From positions 1 to 60,574 of the forward strand of contig JAEEUR010000001.1 of the NCBI GenBank assembly GCA_016290595.1: 60,574 bases of DNA. Direction: 5' to 3'. The notes below the pieces were generated by a model that had not been told where the DNA came from, did not search any database, and saw nothing but the letters and a program-made list of their open reading frames with translations. The position numbers and the translations under genes were made by a program. The DNA is from Lachnospiraceae bacterium (GTDB taxonomy: Bacteria > Bacillota > Clostridia > Lachnospirales > Lachnospiraceae). Numbering within the stretch: position 1 is the stretch's first letter; each line of letters starts with the position of its first letter. Below are positions 9,468 to 36,280 of this stretch, in pieces.

Positions 9468-9660
9468 ACAGAATACCTCCGCACTAAAGTCGGGCCTATA
9501 CAAACCCATTATGAAATATAATGCCCCGGGGCCCGAAAGTCAATGAAAGGCGGCGAAAATGACAAAAAAAGAGGACGAAAAGCACGCTCCCGCCGTTTTT
9601 CCGCCTTTAAAAAAGGCGTCCGCCGTTTTCAGCAGACGTCCTTCTCTAAAGGCCCGTGAT

Positions 9661-10191
9661 TCAGTTTTTTCCCGCCCGGTTTTTCAGCCGGTCCGCCAGC
9701 ACGGTCAGCATAAAGCCGCTCATGGCCAGCAGGAAAATATAGATTTTCCCTGCCAGACTGGAATAGACGGAAAGCAGACGGCCGAGCAGCGGGATCCGGA
9801 AGCTGAGCTTCCCGATCAGCGCCCCGTAGGAGACCGGATCGGGATCGTTCTCCGCATTCGCGTCGCCCTTCGTGATAAAATCCCCCTCCACGCTGCGGTT
9901 GCGGACGACGCGGTGCGTGACGACCGAACCGTTGGACAGGAAAGCGATGATATCTCCCGCCTCCACTTCCTCCGGCGGGACCTGCCGGGTATAGATCAGT
10001 GTCCCCTCCTTAAGCGCCGGCTCCATGCTGGGACTGACGACGGTATAGATCTCATAGCCGAACAGGCGGGGAAGGGAAAGCGGCAGGGCCGTCAGGATCA
10101 CGGCCAGAAGGATCAGGATCCCGAGCGTCCTGCAAAGAGCGGGAAGCCATTTCCCGCTCTTTTTTCGATTGCTTTTCGTATCAGGCTTCAT
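9661..10191 (-). CDS. ER/archaeal-type signal peptidase I (SipW-like, S26B)
   Basis: 176 aa. It has an N-terminal TM, a catalytic Ser in VVSPSMEPAL, a His in VVTHRVV and GDANxxxD. A second C-terminal TM is typical of SipW. The start overlaps the stop of the upstream gene by 11 nt. Confidence 0.8.
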   Translation of the reverse strand: MKPDTKSNRKKSGKWLPALCRTLGILILLAVILTALPLSLPRLFGYEIYTVVSPSMEPALKEGTLIYTRQVPPEEVEAGDIIAFLSNGSVVTHRVVRNRSVEGDFITKGDANAENDPDPVSYGALIGKLSFRIPLLGRLLSVYSSLAGKIYIFLLAMSGFMLTVLADRLKNRAGKN

Positions 10192-11122
10192 GGCTCTTCC
10201 GTTTCTTCCGTACGGCCAGCACCGCCGTTCCCGCCGCCAGAGCGGCTGCGGAAAGGCCGACGATCAGCCAGGGGCCGGGACTGCTTTTCTCCGGAACGGA
10301 AGCGGCGGGGGGAACGCTCACGGCATCCAGGTCGAGGAGCTCCGCCGGAGGGGCAAGCGCCGTAACCGCTTCGACCGATTCGTACTGCACGGCCGTTTCG
10401 GCGGCCTGCGCCATCTGTGCCGTGGGCTCAGCCGGCTCGTTCTTTGCGCCGGCGGCCGCCGTCGTTTCTTCCGTTTCCGCCGCCGAAGTGTCTGCCGGCG
10501 TTTCTTCCGGAGCGGTCTCCGCCGGCGGCGCCGCCGTGCTTTCCGCCGCTGTGGAAGCCGCCGCCTGGCTCTGCGGCGCGGGGATCTTCGTATAGACGAA
10601 GTCAAACACGTTGTCTTCCGCCTTATCCGTCAGGGTCTTGGTCAGGTTGTAGGCCTGCGGCTGCCAACCCTCGATATAGATATACGCGACAACGGGCTTA
10701 TCGCCCTCGTTGCCGTAATAGGTCTCGCTTTCGGCCAGACGGTTTCCGGCGCCGTCCACGTAATTGGCGGTATAGGCGACCGCGCTGCCGAGCACGCCGT
10801 AAGCCACCACGTAGTCGATGTCCCGCGTTACAAGGAAGGACGTGGGCCCTACCTCGCTATTGTCATGACCCGCCTCGCGGATGCCTTTTACGTAATACTT
10901 GCTGCCTTCCTTCAGGCTGACCTGGTTCAGGCTGAAATTGATGCGGTCTCCGTAGCTCAGGCTGTCGTAGACGAGCACGTCGGAGCCGTCCGCAAACGTT
11001 CCCTGCGCGCCGGCATAGATCCGGACGGTGTAGGTGTAGCTGTTTTTCGCAGCCGCAGGGACAAGGAGGCCGCCCGTCAGGATCAGGCAGAGGACGAGGC
11101 AGAAAATCCTGATCTTCTTCAT
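10181..11122 (-). CDS. secreted MucBP-like domain protein with low-complexity stalk and C-terminal membrane anchor
   Basis: I prefer the start MKKIRIFCLVLCLILTGG (ATGA overlap with the upstream stop at 11119-11122). A MucBP-like block reads YTANYVDGAGNRLAESETYYGNEGDKPVVAYIYIEGWQPQAYN. An Ala/Thr/Glu/Pro-rich stalk follows, and the end is PGPWLIVGLSAAALAAGTAVLAVRKKRKSHEA. Confidence 0.6.
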   Translation of the reverse strand: MKKIRIFCLVLCLILTGGLLVPAAAKNSYTYTVRIYAGAQGTFADGSDVLVYDSLSYGDRINFSLNQVSLKEGSKYYVKGIREAGHDNSEVGPTSFLVTRDIDYVVAYGVLGSAVAYTANYVDGAGNRLAESETYYGNEGDKPVVAYIYIEGWQPQAYNLTKTLTDKAEDNVFDFVYTKIPAPQSQAAASTAAESTAAPPAETAPEETPADTSAAETEETTAAAGAKNEPAEPTAQMAQAAETAVQYESVEAVTALAPPAELLDLDAVSVPPAASVPEKSSPGPWLIVGLSAAALAAGTAVLAVRKKRKSHEA

Positions 11123-11847
11123 TTCTCTTCCTCCTCCCGGCGTTTCTTTCTCCCGCGGAGCAGCAGGAACAGCAGAAGTCCCCCGCTTACGAGCATCACG
11201 CCGGACCAGATCCACAGATCCGGCTTTTCACCCGTATCCACGATGACCGTGGAGCCGTCCGCTTTCCTGATCTCCGCCGCAAAGCGGAGCTGTACGTCCG
11301 CCTTCGTGTTCTGATAGCTGTTGCCCTGGGATTCGCCGTCCAGGGTCAGCCGCACCGTGACTTTTCCGCTCTTCCCGGAGGAGAGCTCGTCCAGATAAAA
11401 GAAGTTCTTCAGGGCGGTATCCGCGCCGTGAAGGCCCTCGCCGTCCGGGACCTTCTCGCTGCCCTCCCCGCCTATGGTCTCGGAGCTGTACAGGATCTTT
11501 TCCGTCCCGCCGGTGGGGGTATAGGTCAGCAGATATTCATAGGCGCCGCCGGAAGCCGCATCGCTTCGGTCTTCGAGCGAATAGAGGATCTCGTTGGAGA
11601 GATACCATGCGGCGGACTGCGCGTATTCCTGGATGATCGTCACGGTAAAGACGGCCGTATCGCCGGGTTCCATGGCGTCCACGATCTTATCGATATCCGA
11701 GGAGGTAAAGTTGCTGCGCATCTTCCCGTTCGCATCCAGCACGACCTGCCAGCCTTCGCCGCCGGAATACTCTTCCGCAAACGCCGTCAGGCCAAATAAA
11801 AGCAGGACAGTAAGGATCAGAGGCAGAACAGATCTAAGCTTTTTCAT
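11119..11847 (-). CDS. TasA/camelysin-like secreted protein with C-terminal TM anchor and basic tail
   Basis: 242 aa. The signal peptide is MKKLRSVLPLILTVLLLFGLTAFA. A late beta-strand block GNSYQNTKADVQLRFAAE resembles the TasA/CalY C-terminal motif. The end is IVDTGEKPDLWIWSGVMLVSGGLLLFLLLRGRKKRREEEEK. Confidence 0.5.
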   Translation of the reverse strand: MKKLRSVLPLILTVLLLFGLTAFAEEYSGGEGWQVVLDANGKMRSNFTSSDIDKIVDAMEPGDTAVFTVTIIQEYAQSAAWYLSNEILYSLEDRSDAASGGAYEYLLTYTPTGGTEKILYSSETIGGEGSEKVPDGEGLHGADTALKNFFYLDELSSGKSGKVTVRLTLDGESQGNSYQNTKADVQLRFAAEIRKADGSTVIVDTGEKPDLWIWSGVMLVSGGLLLFLLLRGRKKRREEEEK

Positions 11848-12578
11848 CAGTCAGCCTCCTTTAAGGACAGTACGCCGTCCTTCGCGCTCACCCGCTGTCC
11901 CCAGGCAGAAAGGATGGCCGCCTCTGCGCTGTGCGTCTGCACGCCGTCCGCGCGGGCCTCCACCATGAACTGACAGCCGTCGTAGTCGTACGTCCGGCGG
12001 ATCACGGTGAAGCCGTCCTTTTCCGTCCGGGTCTCCGTCACGGCGTCCGCCAGCGACGGATCCAGCTTCAGAAAATCGCTGAAGGGATCGGTCTTTTCTC
12101 CGCTCTTTAAGCTCAGCCGGTAGTAAAGGACCGTCCGCTCCGGCGTGGAGGACGCTTCGTCGATCAGCCAGTTTTCGCCCGGCGTTAAGTGAAGGCCGAT
12201 CAGGGCCGGAGAAAGTTCCGTATTTTTGTTTCCCTCCGCATCCAGCCAGTACAGGTACAGGCTGACGCGGACGTACATATCCGAACCGCCGAGGTTGACG
12301 AGCGCGAGGGCTTCCGGATACTCCTGTCCGGGCCGGATCTGCTCTCCTTCCGCCGTCAGCTTTTTTAAGAGGATGTGGTCCTCATCCACCCGCTCGCCGT
12401 TTTCCAGCAGGCCGATGTCGATGTGCTTCATCTCCACCTGATAGACGCGCCGTTCGGAGAAAGCCGTGAGCGCGGCCCGGGCCGTGCCGATGCCGCCTGC
12501 GATCAGAAGGCCGGCCGCCAGGATAAACAAAAGAACCGTCGCCTTGGGAGACTTCAGAAACTGCTTCAGCTTCTTCAT
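11847..12578 (-). CDS. TasA/camelysin family-like protein with SipW-class signal peptide
   Basis: 243 aa. The N-terminus ...LLIAGGIGTARAALTAFSE matches the SipW-dependent signal pattern (GG.GT.A.F.D/E) of TasA/CalY. The C-terminal block is CQFMVEARADGVQTHSAEAA. Confidence 0.6.
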   Translation of the reverse strand: MKKLKQFLKSPKATVLLFILAAGLLIAGGIGTARAALTAFSERRVYQVEMKHIDIGLLENGERVDEDHILLKKLTAEGEQIRPGQEYPEALALVNLGGSDMYVRVSLYLYWLDAEGNKNTELSPALIGLHLTPGENWLIDEASSTPERTVLYYRLSLKSGEKTDPFSDFLKLDPSLADAVTETRTEKDGFTVIRRTYDYDGCQFMVEARADGVQTHSAEAAILSAWGQRVSAKDGVLSLKEAD

Positions 12579-13078
12579 TGGGTGCCTCCCTTCTCCGGCT
12601 GCGCCGTCCAGTCCGCGTACGGCGTGCCGTCCGCCTTAAAGAGCGCCCGGCTGCACTCGTACACCACGATCACGTTGAAATCCGTGCCGGCGACGGCGCC
12701 CACCGGCAGCTTCACGACCTTGACGAGCAGCTCGGCCGTGCTTTCTCCCGCGGAAAGGACCGTCCCGCAGTACCACCAGCCGTCCCCGCCGTCGGTCCAG
12801 CTGCCGTCCTCGCTGAGGATCAGCAGTTCCACGCTTTCATCGGCAAAGACGCGCGCACGGACGAAGACGGGTTCGGAATCGTCTTCCGCTTTCACCGTCA
12901 CGTGCTTGGTCCAGGCGGAGAACTCCTCCAGGATCTCGTTTACCGAGCCCATTATCAGGGTCCGGCCGCCTTTCGCCCAGGCGTTGCTGGTAAAGTAGGC
13001 CGAAGCGCCTCCCAGCCGGGTCATCAGGACCAGCAGCAGCGCCAGGCCGCAAAGAATCAAAGATGCTTTTTTCTTCAT
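12575..13078 (-). CDS. small TasA/camelysin family-like protein with SipW-class signal peptide
   Basis: 167 aa. MKKKASLILCGLALLLVLMTRLGGASAYFTSN compares with CalY ...GGGTFAYFSD. The start overlaps the upstream stop. Confidence 0.6.
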   Translation of the reverse strand: MKKKASLILCGLALLLVLMTRLGGASAYFTSNAWAKGGRTLIMGSVNEILEEFSAWTKHVTVKAEDDSEPVFVRARVFADESVELLILSEDGSWTDGGDGWWYCGTVLSAGESTAELLVKVVKLPVGAVAGTDFNVIVVYECSRALFKADGTPYADWTAQPEKGGTQ

Positions 13079-14145
13079 GGCGCCTCCTGCTTTCCGCTGC
13101 TGTCAGCCCGCTTTTCCCAGATCCAGCCGTCTTCGCCGAGCGTGAAATGATTCTCCACGCCGTGGCCGCTGCGGCCGGTATCCGAATATTCATTGGCAAA
13201 TCCGGCGGATACCAGCGCATCCGCCTCGATGATCACCGTCTTTGAAGTATCGCCGACGGCTGTATAGACGGCGCCGCCGTAGATCTCCCGGATCTCGACC
13301 GAAGCGCCGGCAGGGATCCCCCGGATGACCAGGCTCTTTATCCCGGCGTCCGTGAAATTCAGGGAATACACCCTGGCAGGGCTCTTTACGCCGTCCAGCG
13401 TGACCGTCACGGAGAAGATAAACAGCGCGTTCTCCGGCGCCAGATAGCTTTTCAGCGTCTTCACGATCTTAAGATCGCCCAGCCGTCTTTCGCGGGAAGC
13501 CTTTAAGACGCATTCGGTCCCATACAGCCATTCTCCGCTGCCGGCGGTGTTGATGTTGCCGTTCTCGTCCGGTTCCTTCGTGGGCAGCGCGATCAGCTCC
13601 GGCTCAAACTGATATTCATACAGGGCGGAACGTGCCGTGGAGACCAGCACCGTCTTTCCGTCCTCATCTTTGATCTCTTTGAAGTAATCCGTCAGCGCCG
13701 CGCCGTGGGCTATCGCCACGTAAACGCCGGCGGGAAGGTCCGTCATTTCGCTGCCGGCCGCCGCGCTGGCTGCCGGCGTGAGGGAAGAAAGCTTCTCCCG
13801 CACGATCTGTCCGGCCTCGGCCGCCAGGCGTTCCCAGCTTTCGGTATCGGACTGATCGGAAATCCGCATGCCTGCGAAAGCACCGGCGCTTTCATAGCGG
13901 AGCGTATCGTGGCCGGGCACGGCCTTTGCTTCCGCGACCTTGTACAGATCTACCTGTACGCCGGCGGAAGCGGCGTCTTCCCCGAATTCGCCGCCCGGGA
14001 GAGATACCGTAAGAGAACAGCTGCGGCTTAGGTCCACCGGAGCAAAGGAGGCCAGCGCAGTCGCGGAAACAAGAGCCAGCAGCAGGACGCAGCAAAGGAG
14101 CGCAGACCGTCTGCGTACTGTCAGGCGTGCTTGCTTTTTCTTCAT
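13075..14145 (-). CDS. pilin-fold secreted protein (pilin-motif-like lysine, CnaB-like C-domain) lacking a cell-wall sorting signal
   Basis: 356 aa with a signal peptide. The N-domain parallels the backbone pilin (VQVDLYKV, DLPAGVYVAIA, LIALPTKEPDE). The C-domain runs DLKIVKTL...AGFANEYSD. The C-terminus is hydrophilic. The ATG overlaps the sortase stop. Confidence 0.55.
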   Translation of the reverse strand: MKKKQARLTVRRRSALLCCVLLLALVSATALASFAPVDLSRSCSLTVSLPGGEFGEDAASAGVQVDLYKVAEAKAVPGHDTLRYESAGAFAGMRISDQSDTESWERLAAEAGQIVREKLSSLTPAASAAAGSEMTDLPAGVYVAIAHGAALTDYFKEIKDEDGKTVLVSTARSALYEYQFEPELIALPTKEPDENGNINTAGSGEWLYGTECVLKASRERRLGDLKIVKTLKSYLAPENALFIFSVTVTLDGVKSPARVYSLNFTDAGIKSLVIRGIPAGASVEIREIYGGAVYTAVGDTSKTVIIEADALVSAGFANEYSDTGRSGHGVENHFTLGEDGWIWEKRADSSGKQEAP

Positions 14146-15137
14146 GTCCGGCCTCCTTTCTTTCGGCTTCGGGGAACGGATCCCGCAGCTTCCGGCTGCG
14201 GCGGATCGTCCCGGTTCGCTTCTATAGTTTCTTCCGTTCCGGCCCTGTATTTTGCGTACAGGCGGTCCGGATCCGTCTCCTCGTCTCTGCCGTAGGTCAG
14301 CCGGTCGTAGATCAGCAGGCCGGTCAGAAAAACGAAGAGCAGCGGAATCCCCACGGCGGGGATGGTGATATACGTCGGGATCTTGGTGGCGCCGGGATCG
14401 ACCGTGATGCGCTTTTCTTCTTCGGCATTAGCGATCCGCCGGCCCCGCACCAGCATGCGGTGCGTGTTGATCCCGTACGGGGTGCAGGTCAGGAGCGTCA
14501 TATAGTCCTGTCCTTCAACGATGGCAAGGTCCTGGATCTCGTCCGGCTTCACGATCCGGATCTGATCCACCTGGTAGGTCAGGGTCTGGTTCAGCACCGT
14601 GACCAGGAAGACGTCGCCGACCGTCATCTTATCCAGATCCGTGAACAGTCTGGCGGAGGGAAGTCCCCGGTGGCCCGAGACCACCGCATGGGTGCTTTCG
14701 CCGCCGACGGGGAGCGAGGTCCATTCCAGATGTCCGACGGCCACCTGCAGCGCCGCCTCTTCCGTTCCGTGATAGATCGGCAGATTGACGCCGATAACGG
14801 GGATCTGCAGATAACCGAGGATCCCGGTTCCCGAAACGTCCAGCAGGCTGCGGTACAGCGCCTTCTCCTCTTCCGTCATCAGAAGGCGGTTCTCTTTTTT
14901 AGCGAGCGCCTCGTTATAGGCGGCGGCCCGGGCGAGCATCTCGCGGGTCTTCTCATCGTCCGCGCTTTCCACCTGCTCCACGTAGGAAGCGATGGCACGG
15001 GACTGATGCAGGGAGTTCCACCAGTCGCTGACGGTCGGGTAGGCCATAATGCCGATCCCCAGAAACAGCGCCAGCACCAGCAGAACGGTCGGCAGGGCAG
15101 ACTTCTTTTTCTTTTTTGTCTGTTTCCCTTCCGCCAT
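14142..15137 (-). CDS. srtC: class C (pilus-polymerising) sortase
   Basis: 331 aa. It has an N-terminal signal-anchor, the motifs LPIYHGTEE, VSGHRGLPSARLF and TLLTCTPYGINTHRMLVRGRR, and a C-terminal TM typical of class C. Confidence 0.9.
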   Translation of the reverse strand: MAEGKQTKKKKKSALPTVLLVLALFLGIGIMAYPTVSDWWNSLHQSRAIASYVEQVESADDEKTREMLARAAAYNEALAKKENRLLMTEEEKALYRSLLDVSGTGILGYLQIPVIGVNLPIYHGTEEAALQVAVGHLEWTSLPVGGESTHAVVSGHRGLPSARLFTDLDKMTVGDVFLVTVLNQTLTYQVDQIRIVKPDEIQDLAIVEGQDYMTLLTCTPYGINTHRMLVRGRRIANAEEEKRITVDPGATKIPTYITIPAVGIPLLFVFLTGLLIYDRLTYGRDEETDPDRLYAKYRAGTEETIEANRDDPPQPEAAGSVPRSRKKGGRT

Positions 15138-15186
15138 GGCCCGCGTTCCGACTCCTTCTTCCTGAAATAGACCGCTTTGCGGCTGC

Positions 15187-16620
15187 TTAACCGCGGTTCA
15201 TCCGGCGGCGGACCACCAGCGCCAGGCCGGCGCCGACGATCAGGATGCCGCCGACGATCGTAAAGATCTTCGTACCGATACCGCCGGTGGACGGCAGCTC
15301 GGTGCCGGAATTATTTTCAATAGGGATGCGAGTCCCGTTCCCATCGTCTACCGTTACATCCACTTCTTCCGTCAGCTTGTTATAGCCGCTGGGCGGAGTG
15401 ATCTCAGCCAGCGTATAGTCATCATCCGTATCCACGCCCCAGATCACGATATCGCCCGAGGCTACGGTGGTAAAGGTATCCACGCCGGTCTCATTAGGCA
15501 TCGCCACACGGTAGTTGTTGTCGTCGATTTTGATCAGCGGTACCACCGTGCCGGCCTTCTTCAGGGAGAAGACCGCGCCGGCCAGGTTGTCCGTGGAATT
15601 TTTCGCATGCTTGAACACGGAGAATTTATGCGTCGTGGTCGAGGTTGAATCCTCTGTACTTTCAGTTGCATCACCGAAAGAGATGTGCGTTTTATTGTAC
15701 TGCGTCTCGATTGCGATTCCATCAGAGCCAGAAACTACAGCCGTCTCATTCAGGGTGGCGGTATAAGTAATTTCATATTTTATGAACCCATCCGTTCCGA
15801 AATCAAGGCTGTCGATCCAGGACTGGGTAAAGGTGATATCAAAGGTATCGCCGTCAGTCGTTTCTTCATTGACTGTATATTCCGTGCCTTTGGTAAGGCC
15901 CTCGATGGCGACGCTCCCGGCCGTGTAAGTCAGGCCGGCATCCATTTTATCGTGCACCACAACGTTGCGGGTGCCTTTCACGATATTGACCGTAGATTTA
16001 AACTCTACAACATCGCCGATTTGGGCATCATTGTCAGTAGCGTAGTCATCGGCGCTATCTTCTTTCACCTCTTTTTCAATGGTGTTTTCCGGGTTCTTTT
16101 CATTGATCGTGACCGCAGCACTGTCCGGCGTAGTCTCCGTCATGGCGATAGTACCCAAGGTGGAGGTGATCAGCCAATAGCCATCTGCCAGACCGGAAAA
16201 GACTGCCGTTGTTTCACCATCTCCCACAATCACAGTCTGTGTAGGTGCCGGCTTGCCGCTCCATGCTGCCGCCGCTTTGGCAAGAGCCTCCGCATCGGAA
16301 TCGATGATGGCCGTTACGTAGCCGGCTTCATTAACCGTAATGTACGAATGGCCGTCGCCGCCCTCGGCAAAGAAGGCGGCCCAGTCTGCGTTGACCGTGT
16401 AAGAATACGCGGTCGGGGCCGACTCGTCGTTCACCGTCAGGTCGAACAACTTGTAAAGTTCGTAGGTCTCACCGGGCTTCGCATTATTGACGGTAATGCT
16501 GTCGTTCTTACTTGATGCCTGGGGATCCTGTCCGGTTCCCGAAGCAAAGGCTGTCAGGCCCACGGTCAGGATCATGACCAGGGTCATCAGCAGGGCTGAA
16601 ACTGTACCAAATTTCTTCAT
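15187..16620 (-). CDS. LPXTG-anchored backbone (major) pilin, isopeptide-domain family
   Basis: 477 aa with a signal peptide. VTINEKNPEN is pilin-motif-like. CnaB-like modules are present (AGAVFSLKK..., YTLAEITPPSGYN). The C-terminus is ELPSTGGIGTKIFTIVGGILIVGAGLALVVRRRMNRG. Confidence 0.85.
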   Translation of the reverse strand: MKKFGTVSALLMTLVMILTVGLTAFASGTGQDPQASSKNDSITVNNAKPGETYELYKLFDLTVNDESAPTAYSYTVNADWAAFFAEGGDGHSYITVNEAGYVTAIIDSDAEALAKAAAAWSGKPAPTQTVIVGDGETTAVFSGLADGYWLITSTLGTIAMTETTPDSAAVTINEKNPENTIEKEVKEDSADDYATDNDAQIGDVVEFKSTVNIVKGTRNVVVHDKMDAGLTYTAGSVAIEGLTKGTEYTVNEETTDGDTFDITFTQSWIDSLDFGTDGFIKYEITYTATLNETAVVSGSDGIAIETQYNKTHISFGDATESTEDSTSTTTHKFSVFKHAKNSTDNLAGAVFSLKKAGTVVPLIKIDDNNYRVAMPNETGVDTFTTVASGDIVIWGVDTDDDYTLAEITPPSGYNKLTEEVDVTVDDGNGTRIPIENNSGTELPSTGGIGTKIFTIVGGILIVGAGLALVVRRRMNRG

Positions 16621-16697
16621 TGTTCTGCGCTCCTTTTCTGATTTGGTATCTTATTTGCTGTATGTCGTCGCCCGTACCGGGCTGTTTCTTCTGTTAT

Positions 16698-18137
16698 TTA
16701 TTCCTGTTCTTCCGCCGGGCCGATCTCAAAGATGATCCGGCTTCCGCCTTCCGCATCCGCCTGTTCCACCAGGCTGGCGTTCCCTTCGCGGTCGATGGAG
16801 ATCACGAGCGGGGAGTCCGTTCCTTCCGTTTCCTCCAGCTGAACGGTGATCCGTACCAGCGCCTTCGGGACGATCGCTTCGCCCGTCTTCGTGAGGAAGG
16901 TGAACTCCAGGGCCTGCAGCCGCAGGAACTCCGGCGGGATCGCTTCCGAGACCGATTCGGGCAGTTCCTCGGAGATCACTTCCCGTACCTCCATGCGGGT
17001 CCCATCGGGGAAGGCGCCTTCGGCTGCCTCCGCCAGGACCGTCAGGCCTTCCAGGCTGACGCTGAAGCTCTGCGCCGGATATGCTTCCGCTTCGTTAGGC
17101 TCAGACTCTGTCACTTCAGGTTCCGTCGTTTCCGGTACCGTCTCTTCCGGCTCGCTGGTTTCAGGTTCCGTCGTTTCGGGCTCCGTCTCTTCAGGCACTG
17201 TCTCTTCGGGCTCGGTGGTTTCGGGTTCCGTTTCTTCCGGAACTGTTGTCTCGGGTTCGGTGGTTTCCGGTTCCGTCGTTTCGGGTTCTGTCTCTTCAGG
17301 CTCTGTCGTTTCAGGCTCGGTCGCTTCCGGTTCCGTTTCTTCCGGAGCTGTTGTCTCAGGCTCGGTGGTCTCAGGTTCCGTCTCTTCCGGCTCCGTAGTC
17401 TCCGGTTCTGTCTCTTCAGGAACTGTCGTCTCCGGTTCGGGGGCTTCAGGTTCCGTCGTTTCAGGCTCCGTGACCTCCGGCTCGGTCGTCTCCGGTTCTG
17501 TCGTTTCAGGTTCCGTTTCTTCCGGCTCTGTCACCTCGGGTTCGATGGTTTCCGGCTCTGTCTCTTCAGGCAATGTCGTGTCAAGCTCGGTTTCTACCGG
17601 TTCCGTCACCTCGGCTTCCGTCGTCTCCGGCTCCGTATTCTCTTCGCTTTCCGGCTCGGTCACGAAGCGGAAGCAGAGATCGTCGTGCGCATGTTCTCTG
17701 AGTTCTATCTTCCCGCAGATCAGCGCCCCGTTTTCGTCCCGGCAGGCGGCCGTATGCACGTGCAGTTCCGTAGGCTCGGTGCAGATCAGCGTTCCGTCTT
17801 CCGCGTAACAACTTTCGCCGTGAACGTGCAGGCTTCTCTCCGGGATCGGGCAGACCAGCCGGCCGCTCCTGTCGCAGCAGGACGCCTTGTGCTCATGGAT
17901 CACGTAATCCGCATAGCCGCAGATCAGCCTTCCTTCGGCATCATAGCAGGCTTCCGAATGCTGATGGACCGTATACGTACAGGCCAGTTCCCGTTCCTGT
18001 CCGACCATCGCGAGGCCGGACCTTGTCAGGACGGCGGTTGTTCCCGTACCGACCAGCAGGGCCAGTCCCAGGAAGACCGCCATCCAGCGGCGGTGTTTCC
18101 GCCGGGATTCCAGCATCTTCTTTAAGCGTTCTTCCAC
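16698..18137 (-). CDS. signal-anchored protein: Cys/His mini-repeats, (PETTE)n acidic stalk, C-terminal beta-rich module
   Basis: 479 aa. It starts at GTG 18137; the in-frame ATG at Met-8 is an alternative start. The N-terminus is a basic stretch plus TM ([26 protein letters not shown]). Four and a half H-x-H...C...L-x-C repeats are followed by about 190 aa of T/E/P. The C-terminal domain is about 125 aa. Confidence 0.6.
17091..17660 (-). repeat. coding tandem repeat, ~38 imperfect 15-nt units encoding P-E-(T/E/V)-T-E
   Basis: The plus strand shows gtttc(c/g/a)gg(c/t)tc(c/g/t)gt(c/g) periodicity. The protein reads ...[43 protein letters not shown]... Confidence 0.9.
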
Positions 18138-18206
18138 TCTTCCTTTCAGGGTAACCGCCTCCTTTCTCTTAAAAATCTGTTATTCTTCCGTTTGGTGCCG
18201 CCGGCC

Positions 18207-18785
18207 CTACCGGACCCGGCCGAAGCCGCTTAAGGGCCACACCCGGAAGATGATCTTTCCGATGATCATCTCGTCGCTGATGCATCCCACCGTCGTATGA
18301 CGGCTGTCGATGCTGGTGGAGCGATGGTCCCCCATCACAAAATACCTGGCGTCGGGGACCTGGTAAGGCAGTTCGATGTCGGTTTCCCCGAACGCCTTCT
18401 CGCTTAAGTACGTTTCCTCGAGGGGCTGTCCGTCGATATAGACGGTTCCGGTCTCATCCAGATTGACCCACTGTCCCTCGGTCGCAATGACCCGTTTGAT
18501 CAGGATCGTATTGTTGTAGTAAAAGGCAATCACGTCTCCCTGCTTTAAGTTCCGGTGCAGGGCGATGACGATATCGCCGTCGTTCAAGGTGTCCGACATG
18601 GAGCTGCCCAGGATCTGCAGCATCGGCAGGACCAGCACAGCGACCAGGACCGCCAGCGCCGCGACCACGACCAGATAGAACACCGTGCCGCGGAAGACCT
18701 TGCCGAAGCGCTTCCTGTACTGGACCTTGTCCAGCTCCTTCTCCAGCTGGTCCACCGAAGGGAAGGTCCGCTCTTCGATCTTCAT
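18207..18785 (-). CDS. lepB: type I signal peptidase (LepB/P-type, catalytic residues intact)
   Basis: 192 aa with one TM. The motifs are GSSMSDTL (Ser), LIKRVIA (Lys) and GDHRSTSIDSR. The start overlaps the stop of the coiled-coil gene. Confidence 0.85.
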   Translation of the reverse strand: MKIEERTFPSVDQLEKELDKVQYRKRFGKVFRGTVFYLVVVAALAVLVAVLVLPMLQILGSSMSDTLNDGDIVIALHRNLKQGDVIAFYYNNTILIKRVIATEGQWVNLDETGTVYIDGQPLEETYLSEKAFGETDIELPYQVPDARYFVMGDHRSTSIDSRHTTVGCISDEMIIGKIIFRVWPLSGFGRVR

Positions 18786-19117
18786 GGCTTTCCGCCCTCC
18801 CGGGAGCCTTCCTGCGGGTCCGTTTCTCCGTCCAGGCGGCGGATCAGGCGGGCGATGGCGTCGTCCTTTTCCTGCAGCCGGTCCGTCAGGGCGTCCAGGC
18901 GGGCTTCTCTTTCGTCCAGCCGTTTTTTCAGGCGGTCGATCTCGGCGTCCTTCTCGTTCAGCCGGACCTTCAGACGGCTCAGCGTTTCCTCCAGGGAGGA
19001 GATCTGGATCTGCCGCTCCGTCAGCTTGTCGCTGATTTCCTGAACGTCCCGGCTCTGCAGGAGCAGAAGCTGGAGCAGATCCTGACGGCGCAGCTTGCGC
19101 AGTTCTTTTTCCGTCAC
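18782..19117 (-). CDS. small cytoplasmic coiled-coil protein
   Basis: 111 aa with no signal peptide. Heptad-rich sequence (LSRLKVRLNEKDAEIDRLKKRLDEREARLDALTDRLQEKDDAIARLIRRL). The start overlaps the adhesin stop and the stop overlaps the lepB start. Confidence 0.5.
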   Translation of the reverse strand: MTEKELRKLRRQDLLQLLLLQSRDVQEISDKLTERQIQISSLEETLSRLKVRLNEKDAEIDRLKKRLDEREARLDALTDRLQEKDDAIARLIRRLDGETDPQEGSREGGKP

Positions 19118-22100
19118 GGCGCTTCCCTCCTCTTCCTTTTTCCGGACCGGATCCGCAGCATCGCGCTGGCTCCGAGGAGCAGCGCCGCGCCGGCCGCGCC
19201 GTACGCAGCCGTTCCCCTTCCGCCGGTCGCGGGAAGCTCGTAGCCGGAGGCGTTCGGCACGGTGATCCGGTAGAGATCCTCCGCCTGCACGTAGGTCACG
19301 GTGTACGGAGCCGCCATGACGACGTTGTCCGTTATGATGCTGCCGGTCACCGTCAGCGTGACCGCTCCCGAGAGCAGCTGATAGCCGTCCGGCGGCGCCG
19401 TTTCGACCAGGCGGTATTCTCCGAAGAGCAGCGCGCCCAGGGACAGCAGGCCGTTTTCGTCGGTCGTGCCGGACGCGACCGCTTCGGCGCCCTCTTTCGG
19501 CGCCTGCGCCGCATCGTCATAATCCGCCGCCCGGTACAGGGCAAAGGAAGCTCCGCTTAAGGACTCGCCGCTCTCCGCGCTGACCTTCTTGAGGCCGACG
19601 TTCTTCTGCTTGCTGTTCGGGATCCCGAGGATATAGGAGACCGTTCCGGTCGCGGGATCCGTTGCCGTCTGCAGCCAGTTTTCGCAGCCGGCCGTATTCA
19701 CGACGACCGTCCCGTCATTCTTAAGGGTGAAGCACAGATCGTACTGCAGCAGCTGGTAAGGGTAAGGCGCCTGCGTTTCCGTCAGGTAGTAGGTGCCGGC
19801 TCCGAGCGCCATCGTGATCTGCCGCAGGACGCCGTCGACCGTCGCGGAAGGAACGCCTTCGGCGTCGGTGATCAGATTCTCCCAGCCCTCGATGGGCAGG
19901 TAGTCCTTGACCAGCTCCCCGTTCAGGTTCGTCACCTGCCGGTACAGGGCAAAGTGCGCGCCGGCTACCGGCGTAAATTCAGCTTCATCTGCGTCACTCT
20001 TGACGACTTTCAGCAGGACGCCCCTGTTCTTAATGGTCACGGTGGCCGCCATGCCGTTCTCATTTGAGCCGTCCTGGGCGATCACTACCATGTAAAGATC
20101 GCTCTCCGGACTGAAGCTGATCTCATTGCCGGCGCTCACCGTGATCGTGATGGGCTGATCCAGCACCACGTAGTTCTGCGGCGCGGCGATCTCCGTCAGC
20201 GTATAAGTCCCTTCGGACAGGTAGGCGATGGTGATCAGGCCGTCCTCTCCGGAGGTGAAGCTCTCGGCCGCGACGGGATTTCCTTCCGCGTCGGTCAAGG
20301 TAAAGACCGCGCCGGCCAGCGGATTCCCGTTCATATCCTGCTTGTACAGCTGGATGCCCGGCCGGGAGTTCGTTACGGTATCGGTGCGGACGTTTTCGTT
20401 CTTGCCGGTAGGCTGCCCTATCGCGTAGGAAACTTTATAGCTGTAGTTATCGTTATGCGTGCCGCCGACGGGCGTTCCGCCGACGTTTAAGGTCCCGCCC
20501 GTTTCGATGGGCGTGACGCTGTCGTATCCGCTGACGACGCCGTCGGCGTTGACGAAGATCCGTCCGCCCTCGGCGACGGTGAGGATGACTTCCCGGACGA
20601 TATAGTCGCTGAACGTCGTACCGTCTTCCAGCTGTTCAAAGAAAAAGTAAACGGAGGTCTCGCCGCCGGAGAGCCGCCGCACCGAATCGGCCAGCAGCTG
20701 TCCGGGCCCTCCCTGCGCATTCCTGAGGTATATGGCAAAGTAGATCGGATCGTGGGATTCCATGAAGTCCGCGTCCGTCCAGACCTTTTCCAGCGTCAGG
20801 CCCCAGCCCCGCTGGTTGCGGACCTCGATGAGCGGGGATTCATCCGCGCCCATGATCGCGCTGTAAGGAGTCCCCTGCGAGATGACGGGATCCACGTCCA
20901 TCCGGTTGTAGCCGTCCGTGATCCGGCGGGTATAGCCCTTCGGCACCTCGTAGTCACGCTCTTCCACCTTGTAGAAGGTGCCGACGATAAGGTTCCGGAA
21001 TTCGATGTAATGATCGGCCGGGATCTTCGTAACGGAGCCGTTCATGGAGGTGATGAAGGTGGCGGACGCCTTCTCTTCCTCGGTCAGGTCGGAATAGACG
21101 GTCTTGCCGAGCGAGGCAAAGCACTGGTTTTCCTCATCCCAGCGGCAGTAGTTGCCGTCCTCGTCCTTGACGTGGTACCGGTACATGTTGGCGGCCGGCA
21201 CGTTTTCGGGATCCGTGTTTTCATTGCCCAGATAGACACGGAAGCTGAACGGCGTTTCGTTGTCGTCCGGATAGTGCAGCACCGTTACGCCGTCCGCATC
21301 GTAGAGCTTCTTGCGCACGGAAAGCGTCCGCATGGCGCCTTCCTTCACGTGGTTGTCAAACTCCACCTTGGAGCGGTTCTGCGTCGTATCCTGCGGCGTC
21401 GTATAATCCAGGCGGGCGGTCCCGTTCACGGTATTGCCGGTCGCCGTTCCCGTCAGGACGGCGCCGTTGGCCCGGACCTCGTCGTACACGTCCGGATTGA
21501 CGCCGCATTCCGTCACCGTATAGGCCGTCGTGCCTTCCGGCAGCGCGATCTCGGCGGACTGGCCGGGTTTCAGGAAGAAGACGTTCTGATAGGCGACCGT
21601 GCCGCCGGCCGGCGTGAAGCTCTCCGCGAATTTGACGTTGGCCGTCGTGCCGGCATAGAAGGCGTTGTAGACGCCGTCCGTCTTCTCTTCCAGCAGATGC
21701 GCCTGCTCTCCGCCGTCGCTGCGGGTCCAGTAGCGGATCTGGTACGGGATCTCGATCAGCGAGTTGTCCGCTTCTTCCGTTCCCGACAGCTTTTTGCTTA
21801 AGATGATATGGCCCGGCTTGACCGCAGCCAGATTGAAGCGCATGTGAAGGTTGGAAGCGCCGGCGCCGCGCTCCATATAGAAGACCGTCATCGTATGGTT
21901 GGAGTAATCCTTGAAGACGTACTGGCCGGCGGCGTTCTGCTGGAAGATCTCGTCCAGCTTCGCCTCGATCTCCGACTCGGAGAGGCCGCGCGCCACGTAA
22001 TTCTCGCGGAACAGCTCGATCAGCGTCGTGTTGCGCGTCCGGGCCGCCACGTTGTTGCCTTTCGCGTCGTGAACGATCAGCTCGACTTCCCCGGTGCGGA

Positions 22101-25056
22101 AGTTGACGTTGCCCACGGAGGCCGCGTGAACGCCGCCCAGATCCAGGATCAGCTCGCCGTCCACGTACAGCCAGAAGTCGTCGTCTCCGGAGAACTCAAA
22201 GATGATGTCGTGGCCCCAGGCGTCCAGGCCGCTGGCCGTCTGCGTGAAGCTGGCTTCCACCTGCATGCCGAAGAAGTAGTCCGCTTCGTTCTGCGGGATC
22301 AGATGCAGGTTTTCGCCTTTTCTCGGATCCGAATCCGGCAGCTCGTTGCCCAGCACGTCGGTCAGGTTCGTGACCCCGGAATAGCGGCCGGCCACGATCT
22401 GGTTGTACGGCATGAACTGGCCGTGGGTCCTCGTCTTCCTGTCATCCGTGCCGATGCCGGCCAGCTGATCGTAGACCGTAAAAGTGCCGTCCGCATTCAG
22501 GTGCGCAAAGTTCTGGGTGCTGTCGTATTCGAAGTAGCCGCTCTCGTTGTAAATGCTCTGAATAAACAGATGATTGGCAGTCGTCATGCCGCTGAACAGT
22601 TCGGCCAGCGAATGTCCTTCTCTTCCGGTTGCAGCCGTAGAAACGGGATACCCGTCGACCATATCCGTGCTGAGCATTCCGGCAGCGTTGTTGTCACGCC
22701 CGAAAAACTCCGTCTGACCGGAATCTCTGTCTTCGACGATCGGATTGTTGAAGTCCACGATCTTCATGGAGATGCCGTACTCGTTGTTGTCGATCGTCGT
22801 GACCGTCGTCAGCTCGTCGGTCTCGTCGATCGGATTCACGACGGCAAAGTAGAAGTCCTCCGCGGCCGAGAGCGGTCCCGAAGCAAGGCGGCCGTCCGCG
22901 ATCCGCAGGCCGCTGTAGGTGTAATAGTAATCGTCCCAGGCGATGATCGTCGTATAGCTTTCGCCGTAGCGGCGGCCGTTTAAGTTGATACCGATCGTCG
23001 CGTCCGAAAAGACCTGGTTGTCCTTCTGCTGCGGCGCGATGTAGTTCCCGTACTGATGATTCTGCAGCTCGTAGTAATAGTTGACCGAGCCGTCGCTGTT
23101 GTGGTATTCGGTGAAATCCCAGAGAGCCGTATTGACGCGGCTGCCGATCCACTCGATGGTGTCGCCGGCGTCGTGGCAGGGGATCAGGGACCCGTCGTGG
23201 TCCACCGCAAAGAATTCATAGCGTTTCTTCGTGTCGTTCCACAGACGCACGTACAGCACCACCTGCTGTCCGTCGTATACGTTCGCCAGGTCGGAAACGC
23301 TGACCTTCTTCGCGGAGTACAGATGGAAGTCCTCTTCCGTCAGCACGGAGCGCTCCACCAGATTCAGCCAGGCCCGGTCGCCGTTCGCATTATTGCCGCT
23401 TACGGCATTGAAGCCCTTTGCGGCGTTCTGCGGCAGATTCAGGGCATAGGAGCCGACCGTAAAGTGCCATTCTCCTTTGTGCGCCCCGGTACCGGGCGTC
23501 ACCTTGATCACGGAATTCGTTTCGTCCGGCGTATCCTGCAGCGTCACGTTTGCGCCGTTGATGGTGAGATATTGTTTTTGCCCGCCGGCCTGCACCGTTA
23601 TATAATACAGATCATCGCTGACGTTTTCGAAGCTCCACTCGACGATATCGCTGTCCTGGGCCACCAGCAGGATGCCCGTATTGTCCAGCACGTCCGGACG
23701 CATCACAAGATCCTGGCCTGCCAGGCGGGACTGGTTGTTCTCCGTTATGGCGTCCGCCGTTAAAGCGCAGGCCAGCACGTTGTCGTCATGGTAGGCGATG
23801 CCGTAGCTCTTGCCGTCCAGATGATAGGGATCGTCCTCTTTGATCAGGGAGGAGGCGTAGGTCAGCCGGATCCAGACGTTGCCGGTCGTATCGTTATTGG
23901 CCGTCCACAGGCGGATGCCGCCGCCGCCGTTGGAATACTGCAGCCACTTATCCTCTCCGAAAACCTTAAAATAGAACAGGCCGTCTCTCGCCTGGCTCAG
24001 TTCGAAAACGGTCCCGCCGCTTGCGACCAGCCCCACCTGGTTGCCATTCGTATTTTTCAGATAGACTTTTGCATTATCAACGACCGTGGAGATGCGGTAG
24101 CAGTTGTCGCCCTCCGCCGGTTCGAGAAGCCAGCTCGCGGCTTCCGTATAGTCATTCTCGCTTATCTGCAGGCAGCCGCCGCTGATCAGGTTGCTCGTGA
24201 AATAATAGGTTTTGTTCGGCGTCGTATTGATTTTTGTCACGGAAAGGACGAAGGCTTCCGCGGTATTGGCGGCCAGTTCCTCCAGATCCTGCACGCTTCT
24301 GGCGCCGAAAGGTTCCGGCGCGTCCACGATGGCGTACACGGAGAAGGACTCGGTCTCAAAGCTGACCGCTTCCCCGTCCGCTTCCACGTTTTCCACGACG
24401 TCCGGTTCCTCCGCGTCTTCCGCGAAGTGGACGACCTGCATGTTTTCCAGGCCGCCGTCCCGGTCCGCGAGCTCGATCTTCACGTCCACGGGAGCGGACA
24501 GCTCCACTTTTTCGCCGTTTATGTCCAGGATCTTGATGTCAAATAAGCGAATGTATTCCGCCGAGCCGGACGCCAGGCCCAGCGCGGACTCGGTCTTGGC
24601 CACGAATTCGTCATAGACCGCAGCGTTGTCGCGGTCCTTCAGGATCTCGGAGACGGCCAGCTCGGCGCCCAGCGGCACGCCGGCGTCCAGACCGTAGGTC
24701 ACGGAGATCTGATAGCTGTTGCCGTCCGTCGCCTTTAAGGTCTTCTGCAGGAAGCGGCCCAGGATCACGAAGAAGGAGGTGCCCCCGCCGTTTTCTTCCG
24801 GCTTCTCATCCTCTGCCGGCTTTTCGCCTTCACCGGGCTCTGCGCCGTCCGCGGGCTCTCCGCTTTCACCCGGTCCCGCCTCTTCGGCAGGGTCTTCGAC
24901 TTCCGCCGGTTCCCCTTCCTGCTCCTGATTTTCCTGCACGGAAACGGTCCCGGCCGCAGGATCTGCGCCCGGTCCGCCGTTCTCTGCTGCCGCCGCCGGA
25001 AGGGCCAGCTGCAGCAGAAGCAGGAGACATAGGAGGATGGAAAGGGTCTTCTTCAT
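19114..25056 (-). CDS. giant LPXTG-anchored pilus-tip-type adhesin (~1980 aa)
   Basis: I prefer the start MKKTLSILLCLLLLLQLALPAAAA; the ORF extends to a GTG at 25092. It has an acidic linker and a fibro-slime/PA14-like block FEFSGDDDFWLYVDGELILDLGGVH. There are several CnaB-like modules (YTLTEIAAPQNY, YYLTETQAPYPY, YRLVETAPPDGY). The C-terminus is ELPATGGRGTAAYGAAGAALLLGASAMLRIRSGKRKRREAP. Confidence 0.85.
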   Translation of the reverse strand: MKKTLSILLCLLLLLQLALPAAAAENGGPGADPAAGTVSVQENQEQEGEPAEVEDPAEEAGPGESGEPADGAEPGEGEKPAEDEKPEENGGGTSFFVILGRFLQKTLKATDGNSYQISVTYGLDAGVPLGAELAVSEILKDRDNAAVYDEFVAKTESALGLASGSAEYIRLFDIKILDINGEKVELSAPVDVKIELADRDGGLENMQVVHFAEDAEEPDVVENVEADGEAVSFETESFSVYAIVDAPEPFGARSVQDLEELAANTAEAFVLSVTKINTTPNKTYYFTSNLISGGCLQISENDYTEAASWLLEPAEGDNCYRISTVVDNAKVYLKNTNGNQVGLVASGGTVFELSQARDGLFYFKVFGEDKWLQYSNGGGGIRLWTANNDTTGNVWIRLTYASSLIKEDDPYHLDGKSYGIAYHDDNVLACALTADAITENNQSRLAGQDLVMRPDVLDNTGILLVAQDSDIVEWSFENVSDDLYYITVQAGGQKQYLTINGANVTLQDTPDETNSVIKVTPGTGAHKGEWHFTVGSYALNLPQNAAKGFNAVSGNNANGDRAWLNLVERSVLTEEDFHLYSAKKVSVSDLANVYDGQQVVLYVRLWNDTKKRYEFFAVDHDGSLIPCHDAGDTIEWIGSRVNTALWDFTEYHNSDGSVNYYYELQNHQYGNYIAPQQKDNQVFSDATIGINLNGRRYGESYTTIIAWDDYYYTYSGLRIADGRLASGPLSAAEDFYFAVVNPIDETDELTTVTTIDNNEYGISMKIVDFNNPIVEDRDSGQTEFFGRDNNAAGMLSTDMVDGYPVSTAATGREGHSLAELFSGMTTANHLFIQSIYNESGYFEYDSTQNFAHLNADGTFTVYDQLAGIGTDDRKTRTHGQFMPYNQIVAGRYSGVTNLTDVLGNELPDSDPRKGENLHLIPQNEADYFFGMQVEASFTQTASGLDAWGHDIIFEFSGDDDFWLYVDGELILDLGGVHAASVGNVNFRTGEVELIVHDAKGNNVAARTRNTTLIELFRENYVARGLSESEIEAKLDEIFQQNAAGQYVFKDYSNHTMTVFYMERGAGASNLHMRFNLAAVKPGHIILSKKLSGTEEADNSLIEIPYQIRYWTRSDGGEQAHLLEEKTDGVYNAFYAGTTANVKFAESFTPAGGTVAYQNVFFLKPGQSAEIALPEGTTAYTVTECGVNPDVYDEVRANGAVLTGTATGNTVNGTARLDYTTPQDTTQNRSKVEFDNHVKEGAMRTLSVRKKLYDADGVTVLHYPDDNETPFSFRVYLGNENTDPENVPAANMYRYHVKDEDGNYCRWDEENQCFASLGKTVYSDLTEEEKASATFITSMNGSVTKIPADHYIEFRNLIVGTFYKVEERDYEVPKGYTRRITDGYNRMDVDPVISQGTPYSAIMGADESPLIEVRNQRGWGLTLEKVWTDADFMESHDPIYFAIYLRNAQGGPGQLLADSVRRLSGGETSVYFFFEQLEDGTTFSDYIVREVILTVAEGGRIFVNADGVVSGYDSVTPIETGGTLNVGGTPVGGTHNDNYSYKVSYAIGQPTGKNENVRTDTVTNSRPGIQLYKQDMNGNPLAGAVFTLTDAEGNPVAAESFTSGEDGLITIAYLSEGTYTLTEIAAPQNYVVLDQPITITVSAGNEISFSPESDLYMVVIAQDGSNENGMAATVTIKNRGVLLKVVKSDADEAEFTPVAGAHFALYRQVTNLNGELVKDYLPIEGWENLITDAEGVPSATVDGVLRQITMALGAGTYYLTETQAPYPYQLLQYDLCFTLKNDGTVVVNTAGCENWLQTATDPATGTVSYILGIPNSKQKNVGLKKVSAESGESLSGASFALYRAADYDDAAQAPKEGAEAVASGTTDENGLLSLGALLFGEYRLVETAPPDGYQLLSGAVTLTVTGSIITDNVVMAAPYTVTYVQAEDLYRITVPNASGYELPATGGRGTAAYGAAGAALLLGASAMLRIRSGKRKRREAP

Positions 25057-25135
25057 GGTTTGCCTGTCATTCAGGTATATTGACTCGGGCACAGACCCAC
25101 GCCGAAACAGGCAGGTCCTGCCCTAAAACTCGTTT

Positions 25136-25164
25136 ATGATACCATATCCCGCTAAATCTTTCAA
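25136..25164 (-). promoter_or_regulatory. candidate sigma-A promoter of the pilus locus
   Basis: The minus strand reads TTGAAA-17 nt-TATCAT inside the only AT-rich stretch (25130-25330) upstream of the adhesin gene. Confidence 0.5.
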
Positions 25165-25425
25165 GTTTTTTTATGATTATCCCGCATTTATGCCGCCGCA
25201 GCGCGTCATTTATTCTTTTATTCTGCTTTTTACCCGTCTTTCCCTTCCGTTGCTCTTTCTTACTCCGTTTTTTTCTCCTCACAGTCTTTTTCCCTCCGAA
25301 AAAACAGGGCCGGCAGGCTTGATTTTTTGCGGGAAAACTGCGAAAATAGAACCGTTGCGGCCCCGCCTGTCCCATCAACGTTCCGCGGGCCGAAGGCCAC
25401 AGCGCCCAACAAGCAAAGGAGACCT

Positions 25426-36077: not shown

Positions 36078-36123
36078 AAAAAAATAAGCGCCGTCAAAGG
36101 ATTTCATTCCTTCAATAGCGCTT
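36078..36123 (-). terminator. intrinsic terminator forming the riboswitch expression platform
   Basis: The minus strand has AAGCGCTATTGAAGGA-atgaaa-TCCTTTGACGGCGCTT, a 16-position stem with 1 mismatch, followed by ATTTTTTTG. It lies 19 nt before the kal RBS. Confidence 0.8.
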
Positions 36124-36132
36124 CATGCGTGG

Positions 36133-36280
36133 CATGACAGCAGCCGGCGCTGGGCACGGACTGCCAGGAAACGGTTCGGCGGACCGCTCCCTTCGGCGAA
36201 ACGACCCTTTCTCTTTCTCCGGAACTGCCCATCCCACGGGAAAAAGAGTACCCTTCGTTTCGCGCCTCTATCTCACTGCT
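36133..36280 (-). ncRNA. lysine riboswitch (L-box) aptamer
   Basis: The minus strand reads GAGATAGAGGCGCGAAACGAAGGGTAC...GGAGAAAGAGAAAGGGTCGTTTCGCCGAAGGGAGCGG...CCTGGCAGTCCGTGC...GCTGCTGTCATG. This matches the conserved L-box blocks as I recall them from B. subtilis lysC: ATAGAGGTGCGAA, AGAGTA, GGAGAAAGA, GAAAGGG..GTCGCCGAAG, CTGG..CGTGC, CTGTCA. Confidence 0.85.

Follow-up and report, generated by a model that had tools for sequence, protein, structure and literature searches.

A stretch of DNA of 60,574 nucleotides from a Lachnospiraceae bacterium (assembly GCA_016290595.1, contig JAEEUR010000001.1, positions 1 to 60,574; hereafter the window) was found to contain a minus-strand run of twelve co-directional open reading frames (ORFs), extending from 25092 to 9661, in which a sortase-pilus gene set is followed by genes for SipW-exported, TasA-like proteins. 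This locus is best read, with a probability of roughly 55%, as an operon that encodes a covalently linked pilus of the SpaA type together with a strand-exchange chain of the BsaA/TasA type, that is, a two-part surface-fibre apparatus of gut Clostridia. Judging from gene order across related genomes, the pilus and SipW halves constitute a conserved cassette and not a chance adjacency. Sortase pili and TasA-type fibres have been treated as separate routes to surface filaments in Gram-positive bacteria; the cassette stably combines modules of both kinds and three processing enzymes, and its carriers are mostly abundant gut commensals. The genes and signals of the locus are as follows, in the order of transcription.

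25136 to 25164, minus strand: promoter-like TTGAAA-17-TATCAT with TG extension; 10 of 12 consensus positions, top match in 8500–26500
19114 to 25092, minus strand: tip-type adhesin with LPATGG sorting signal; three SpaA domains, DUF7601, Fibro_Slime
18782 to 19117, minus strand: coiled-coil protein of 111 amino acids (aa) without signal peptide, paired with the LepB gene; weak coiled-coil-type matches
18207 to 18785, minus strand: LepB-type (bacterial) signal peptidase I, 192 aa; Peptidase_S26 113 bits, TIGR02227 119 bits
16698 to 18137, minus strand: 479-aa membrane protein; N-terminal transmembrane (TM) helix, four Cys/His repeats, TEPE repeats
15187 to 16620, minus strand: major (shaft) pilin, 477 aa, LPSTGG, E-box-like YTLAEITPPSGY; SpaA, GramPos_pilinBB, and Gram_pos_anchor above cut-offs
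14142 to 15137, minus strand: class C (pilin-polymerising) sortase, 331 aa; NF033745 274.5 bits against a cut-off of 160; TLLTCTPYGINTHR
13075 to 14145, minus strand: 356-aa secreted CnaB-like protein; DUF7601 and DUF5979 just under cut-offs
12575 to 13078, minus strand: 167-aa BsaA/TasA-superfamily subunit, SipW-class signal GGASAYFTS; TIGR04090 E 0.0038
11847 to 12578, minus strand: 243-aa BsaA-family-related subunit, SipW-class signal GTARAALTAFSE; family matches TIGR04090
11119 to 11847, minus strand: 242-aa beta-sandwich protein with ordinary signal peptide and C-terminal sorting signal; IVDTGE, TM helix, RGRKKRR (about 11122–11244)
10181 to 11122, minus strand: 313-aa MucBP-like protein, acidic/Pro-rich linker, C-terminal TM anchor; weak MucBP and internalin-J repeat matches
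9661 to 10191, minus strand: SipW-type (ER/archaeal-type, Ser-His) signal peptidase I, closing the locus; TIGR02228 86 bits against 51.85
9608 to 9638, minus strand: intrinsic terminator 3' of the last gene; 9-bp GC-rich stem, then a U run

To evaluate how widely this arrangement occurs, species-representative genomes (one genome per species) were searched by a pattern scan based on a 12-sequence alignment, which yielded 315 relatives of the 243-aa protein. The twelve locus proteins were then mapped on all ORFs of the best 80 of these 315 loci, some counts being based on 83 loci. These 80 loci originated mostly from Lachnospiraceae (Acetatifactor, Dorea, Roseburia, and Hominifimenecus) and in some cases from Oscillospiraceae. 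Nearly all mapped loci featured the same order, namely (coiled-coil protein, LepB), adhesin, pilin, sortase C, CnaB-like protein, 167-aa protein, 243-aa protein, 242-aa protein, MucBP-like protein, and SipW, at protein identities of only 41–54%. At the junction of the two halves, the sortase C gene immediately preceded the CnaB-like gene in 68 of the 72 testable loci; in two of the four exceptions sortase C is retained and separated from it by the coiled-coil and LepB genes. Likewise, SipW was found 3' of the MucBP-like gene in 69 out of 71 testable loci. An earlier note on this DNA, made from the letters alone, had proposed a composite unit, and the possibility that its halves are never syntenic elsewhere is decisively contradicted by these loci.

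The proteins of the cassette do not diverge uniformly. Pairwise identities of sortase C correlated with those of the second-half genes (rho 0.55–0.60), and the second-half genes correlated among themselves to a similar degree (0.54–0.75), whereas the values for the pilin against the second-half genes were lower (0.33–0.46), its nearest neighbour agreeing with that of the 243-aa protein in 11 of 55 loci. These identity correlations therefore point to a stable core composed of sortase C, the second half, and SipW, the pilin being the variable part.

The layout of the twelve genes on the minus strand is operon-like and suggests a single transcription unit, as deduced from the ORF table and the folding of the intergenic gaps. 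Both the co-directional run and the stop/start overlaps read by the earlier note (19117/19114, 18785/18782, 14145/14142, 13078/13075, 12578/12575, 11847/11847, 10191/10181, and the ATGA at 11119–11122) were recovered from the ORF table; the genes for sortase C and the CnaB-like protein overlap at ATGA 14142–14145. The promoter proposed there was likewise retrieved as the best site, although a sigma-70-type scan of 8500–26500 returned 7 sites against 4.6 expected, which makes the match alone weak evidence. Downstream of the last gene, the extended terminator hairpin (stem 9638–9617; 80 nt past the last stop) reached −36.6 kcal/mol with a z value of −7.5. No significant hairpin was detected in the gaps 15137/15187, 16620/16698, and 18137/18207 (z −0.2, −1.0, and +0.2 against shuffled sequences). 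Since these gaps fold no better than shuffled sequences and the terminal hairpin is strong, a layout as one transcription unit is indicated. Internal terminators or attenuators between the halves were considered, and none was found by the folding and terminator scan of the locus. Furthermore, the Rfam scan of the locus returned no RNA element, and no regulator gene was identified among the flanking genes.

The second half of the locus is closed by the SipW-type peptidase. The earlier assignment of an ER-type, SipW-like enzyme to this position agrees with the TIGR02228 score and the motifs SPSMEP, THRV, and GDAN, while the Bacillus SipW equivalog NF046067 scored 76 bits against a cut-off of 190. 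Upstream of it, three paralogues with TasA/camelysin hallmarks had been proposed, which is right only in part. The 167-aa and 243-aa proteins carry SipW-class signals and, at the level of family profiles, are remote paralogues of each other (hhalign probability 86.5%); both are also distantly related to the SipW-dependent matrix proteins of the BsaA family, represented by TIGR04090 (curated cut-off 60 bits). Among the orthologues of the 167-aa protein, 34 of 37 matched TIGR04090 (best 2e-10), and five matched the SipW-cognate signal model TIGR04088. The family of the 243-aa protein, which is unannotated and comprises at least 84 clusters, showed weak matches to TIGR04090 for 37 out of 39 members (best 4.8e-9). 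The predicted relationship to SipW-dependent fibre proteins is represented by the TIGR04090 link, which lies below the curated cut-off and covers two proteins only. The 242-aa protein features an ordinary signal peptide ending in AFA-EE, not one of the SipW class, and its placement as a third paralogue was rejected, as hhalign probabilities against the other two families were between 1.7% and 37%.

In the comparison with TasA, for which a query identical to PDB 8AUR chain A across residues 28–261 was used, the 167-aa family reached an hhalign probability of 70.6% (E 3.9e-5), and its AWAYFT segment, part of the N-terminal family consensus AWAYFTTY, aligned with TWAAFND of TasA. For the 243-aa family, whose consensus is RAALTYFSE, the corresponding value was 11.5%, and for the 242-aa family it was a borderline 59% (E 9e-5). 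An AlphaFold2 (AF2) model of the 243-aa protein represented a beta-sandwich with a predicted local distance difference test (pLDDT) score of 81, in which residues 31–52, the predicted mature N-terminus, are disordered, as expected of a donor strand. In the AF2 model of the 242-aa protein (pLDDT likewise 81), by contrast, the mature N-terminus is folded into the domain. Of the 38 orthologues of this protein that were compared with Peptidase_M73, a single one matched (E 0.046). A search of representative sequences with this family returned 1177 matches, the best 150 of which were all close relatives; among these matches listed, no bridge to TasA was found.

The C-terminal sorting signal of the 242-aa protein was overlooked by the earlier note. 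Among its relatives, 78 of 81 possess [KRQHN]T[GS]D followed by a TM helix and a basic tail, usually after (V/I)V. The prevailing form is (V/I)V(K/R/Q)T(G/S)D, canonical LPxTGD occurs in a small number of relatives, and the clade of the protein studied here is characterised by IV(D/E)TG(E/D). Orthologues matched NF053819 (23 of 38), TIGR01167 (LPXTG_anchor, 13), and TIGR03063 (srtB_target, 10; best 2.2e-7), and the protein of this locus itself showed only weak matches to LPXTG models. The NCBIfam model of a GVDTG sorting domain was considered for IVDTGE and discarded, its sole match being weak and to a different protein. As LPxTGG ends all 60 of 60 orthologous pilins in related cassettes, the motif of the 242-aa family represents a second class of sorting signal within the cassette. 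SrtB cleaves NVQTG, and a valine at the second position therefore has precedent among clostridial sortase B substrates. A passage of a paper on C. difficile SrtB mentions this NVQTG motif (PMC4155245).

Furthermore, a class B sortase gene was identified directly after SipW in 25 related loci. In one further arrangement (L081:12770–14278), a single ORF combines a SipW-type peptidase (SGSMEP, HRIV, GDANAAED) with a class B sortase (YGHHM, LSTCEY). This fusion, a single instance from a metagenome-assembled genome (MAG), hints that both enzymes may cooperate. The 242-aa protein is predicted to be a wall-anchored base subunit, as suggested by its family alignment and model: lacking a donor strand and carrying a sortase-B-like signal, it would represent a wall-fixed strand acceptor.

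The upstream half corresponds to a Gram-positive pilus set. The adhesin is 1992 aa long when counted from GTG; a likely ATG near 25056 gives about 1980 aa. Its description by the earlier note as an LPATGG protein with fibro-slime/PA14-like and CnaB-like parts was sustained for the sorting signal, for three SpaA domains, and for the fibro-slime match (TIGR02148, 46.9 bits against a cut-off of 45), but not for PA14, which remained below threshold; NF033902 was reached with 101.5 bits against 95. The backbone pilin, the class C sortase, and the LepB-type peptidase named there were all supported by the family models listed above, the pilin scoring 80.6 bits for NF033902 and thus under the cut-off of 95. 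Both the Ser and the Lys boxes of the LepB-type peptidase are intact (SSM, KRV, and GDHRSTSIDSR). A homologue of the 111-aa coiled-coil protein is located 5' of LepB in 12 related loci, and the gene of this putatively cytoplasmic product is translationally coupled to the peptidase gene.

The 479-aa protein, which the earlier note left undescribed, matched no Pfam family and has no sorting signal; it was ruled out as a pilin, being a membrane protein with Cys/His and TEPE repeats. Over residues of about 5–156 it is homologous (E 1e-30 to 1e-38) to the N-termini of the LPxTGG adhesins, 1450–1800 aa in length, that related cassettes encode, which indicates that the cassette analysed here is a rearranged version of the usual order. 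The large adhesin lies upstream of the coiled-coil/LepB pair, and the normal adhesin slot holds the 479-aa protein, which shares with the usual adhesins only their N-terminal module of Cys/His repeats. A conventional base pilin was not found, there being no third SpaA/CnaB pilin with LPXTG in the locus; the only other sorted protein besides pilin and adhesin is the 242-aa beta-sandwich.

Two further proteins, absent from the description in the earlier note, are conserved accessory members of the cassette, as judged from their presence across the loci compared. The gene of the CnaB-like protein, which has neither a sorting signal nor a membrane anchor, was identified in 80 of 83 related loci, in each case flanked by the genes of the sortase and the 167-aa protein, and that of the MucBP-like protein in 79 of 83. 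In about 12 loci the latter is fused in frame to a protein of the 242-aa type (L001:10833–12689 and about 11 others, namely L007, L008, L010, L015–L018, L023, L029, L035, and L073). The fused proteins retain, in their middle, both the sorting signal and the second signal peptide.

Taken as a mechanism, adhesin and shaft pilin would be exported, probably aided by the dedicated LepB-type peptidase, and the class C sortase would polymerise them into a covalent pilus. SipW is predicted to cleave the 167-aa and 243-aa subunits at their special signal peptides, and the freed N-terminal strand (AYFT... or ALT(A/Y)FSE...) would enter the beta-sandwich of a neighbouring subunit by donor-strand exchange, so that a chain may be formed. 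The 242-aa protein would accept such a strand, and its clostridial sortase-B-like signal would fix it to the wall as the base of the chain. That two chemistries are encoded in one unit, as claimed by the earlier note, was upheld insofar as one operon-like unit with a signal peptidase of its own for each half was found. However, the separation drawn there was too clean, because the 242-aa protein carries a sorting signal, 25 loci possess a class B sortase, one SipW–sortase fusion occurs, and an isopeptide lock has been proposed for BsaA. It is conceivable, albeit with low probability, that a hitherto unrecognised hybrid Gram-positive appendage is built, in which a donor-strand chain of TasA/BsaA-like subunits, covalently rooted in the wall through a sortase-sorted subunit, is joined to the sortase-C pilus or needed for its assembly. 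In such a hybrid appendage, SipW, sortase C, and sortase B may work together as a single machine that would be common among gut Lachnospiraceae.

Several observations weigh against the reading as a pilus and a strand-exchange chain. The curated cut-off of TIGR04090 was reached by neither subunit of this locus, the 167-aa protein scoring 17 bits and the 243-aa protein having no match. The check proposed by the earlier note against TasA/Peptidase_M73 models turned out negative, as Pfam Peptidase_M73 (PF12389) was unmatched by the 167-, 243-, and 242-aa proteins even at E≤10. Single-sequence and profile searches of the PDB sequences with these three small proteins returned nothing, and TasA was not recovered by the profile searches. 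Foldseek comparisons of the AF2 models of the 243-aa and 242-aa proteins yielded generic beta-sandwiches (cohesin, CUB) as top matches; TasA appeared at rank 25 for the 243-aa protein (E 0.017, TM-score about 0.3) and, as 5of1_B, at rank 6 for the 242-aa protein (probability 0.97, E 6.8e-3, TM-score about 0.3). IVDTGE is an atypical sorting motif, and no class B sortase is encoded within the 60-kb window. In addition, the CnaB-like, MucBP-like, and coiled-coil proteins are not explained by a two-fibre apparatus.

Of the competing explanations, a chance adjacency of two unrelated operons in one genome appears extremely improbable. Each half does resemble stand-alone systems (sortase pili on the one hand, sipW-tasA or sipW-bsa operons on the other), but the same order is shared by some 80 loci of numerous Lachnospiraceae and Oscillospiraceae genomes despite the low protein identity stated above, the junction genes overlap, and no terminator separates the halves; the synteny survey refutes chance adjacency. 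A single composite fibre, in which the class C sortase joins the pilus shaft onto second-half proteins, would assign the role of the base pilin or adaptor to the 242-aa or the CnaB-like protein and that of a stalk under the pilus to the TasA-like chain. In SpaA-type systems, base pilins differ in their sorting signal, to which the 242-aa protein may be likened, as it is the third sorted protein, has a signal class unlike that of pilin and adhesin, and occurs where the conventional base pilin is missing. The overlap of the sortase C and CnaB-like genes, the stronger co-variation of sortase C with the second half than with its own pilin, and the near-obligate synteny are also in line with such a fibre. 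It nevertheless seems rather unlikely, since no lysine that could accept the shaft is invariant in the 242-aa family, which also weakened the candidacy of the 242-aa protein as a SpaB-like base pilin, and the CnaB-like protein possesses neither an anchor nor a donor-strand motif. Plain co-inheritance predicts the co-variation as well.

It is also doubtful that the second half forms no fibre at all and comprises SipW-exported accessories (an assembly platform, chaperone-like, or matrix proteins) that aid the pilus without polymerising. Membership in the TasA superfamily is only remote, and C. perfringens BsaB has been described to form dimers, not polymers (10.1101/2024.11.04.621531). The MucBP-like protein, being membrane-anchored and fused to the 242-aa type in some loci, suggests a cell-proximal complex. 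However, AWAYFTTY and RAALTYFSE are conserved at the predicted mature N-termini, matching the position of the TasA donor strand, a dedicated SipW is retained in 69 of 71 loci, and two subunit paralogues together with an anchor-type subunit correspond to the layout of TasA-superfamily fibre loci (10.64898/2026.01.04.697558). A pilus accompanied by a strand-exchange chain is the reading preferred here.

Among the systems studied so far, the bsa operon of C. perfringens comes nearest to the cassette. It is arranged as sipW-bsaA-bsaB-bsaC with srtB adjacent, LPXTG being found on a BsaB-like paralogue in most strains (10.1101/2024.11.04.621531; PMC7395162). For BsaA, strand exchange locked by intermolecular isopeptide bonds (N-E-K triad) was proposed (10.1101/2024.11.04.621531). 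Both systems share a SipW-type peptidase; to the several BsaA-family subunits with SipW-class signals, the LPXTG paralogue, and the adjoining class B sortase of bsa correspond here two BsaA-related subunits, one sorted beta-sandwich, and the class B sortase of the 25 related loci. In contrast to the cassette, the C. perfringens operon is devoid of a class C sortase, a shaft pilin, a SpaA-type adhesin, and a LepB-type peptidase. Conversely, the von Willebrand factor A (vWA) protein BsaC and the two-component system of bsa are absent from the cassette, whose additions relative to bsa are the CnaB-like and MucBP-like proteins.

Likeness to the B. subtilis tapA-sipW-tasA system (PDB 8AUR/5OF1) is confined to the dedicated SipW, a jelly-roll or beta-sandwich subunit, and a mature N-terminus as donor strand (AFND in TasA; AYFT here), the latter two being predicted for the cassette. 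The similarity is remote (hhalign 59–71% for two families and 11% for the third), there is no M73 match and no TapA in the cassette, and TasA fibres have no sortase link. SpaA-type pilus clusters with a dedicated signal-peptidase homologue are known from S. pyogenes (SipA/LepA) and A. oris (LepB2). These clusters resemble the first half in that they comprise a LepB-family gene alongside those for a class C sortase and for a tip adhesin and shaft pilin with LPxTG signals, but their base pilin is conventional, and they are not known to include SipW or TasA-like genes. Unlike S. pyogenes SipA, the LepB-type protein of the cassette retains the catalytic Ser and Lys motifs.

The statement of the earlier note that no system with this architecture has been described is partly outdated. 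Two preprints mention such neighbourhoods in passing: genes of the BsaA/TasA type were reported often to share an operon with genes for LPxTG and SpaA proteins, sortases, and signal peptidases (10.1101/2024.11.04.621531), and bacterial loci of the TasA superfamily (AbpX-like) were described to encode fibre and minor subunits, a signal peptidase, sortases, and LPXTG or S-layer homology (SLH) anchors, the LPXTG-anchored protein being predicted to pair with the fibre subunit by strand complementation (10.64898/2026.01.04.697558). The AbpX-like loci differ from the cassette in representing another subfamily, in their signal peptidase with ten TM helices, and in that no full SpaA-type pilus was described within the unit. 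The literature searches retrieved no paper analysing this cassette itself. It is thus recurrent yet experimentally uncharacterised, and less unprecedented than claimed before. If its halves cooperate, the cassette would reveal the way in which fibres built by non-covalent strand exchange are fixed to a Gram-positive wall, and it would suggest that the gut microbiota possesses a major organelle for adhesion or biofilm formation that has so far escaped study.

Cultured carriers were identified in Hominifimenecus microfluidus (CLA-AA-H215), Acetatifactor aquisgranensis (DSM 110981), and Dorea sp. 5-2, which renders the question directly testable. Some genomes possess two or three whole cassettes, in part arranged tail to tail (L011/L031 and L012/L057 on the same contigs; L007/L016 in the same MAG); across the loci compared, the pilin diverges far faster than the core genes. 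The contigs of the cassettes L081, L048, and L065 were binned as Bacteroides, Eggerthellaceae, and Solobacterium, respectively, which may reflect horizontal transfer or mis-binning.

The gene at 6939–9509 (minus strand) encodes an 856-aa protein that belongs to no Pfam family and features a zinc ribbon at the N-terminus, a single membrane helix, and tetratricopeptide repeat (TPR)-like repeats. It has a promoter-like site of its own (9543–9515), which immediately follows the terminator of the operon. Elsewhere in the window, a lysine riboswitch unrelated to the locus was detected at 36108–36278 (minus strand) with 77.9 bits against a gathering score of 30.

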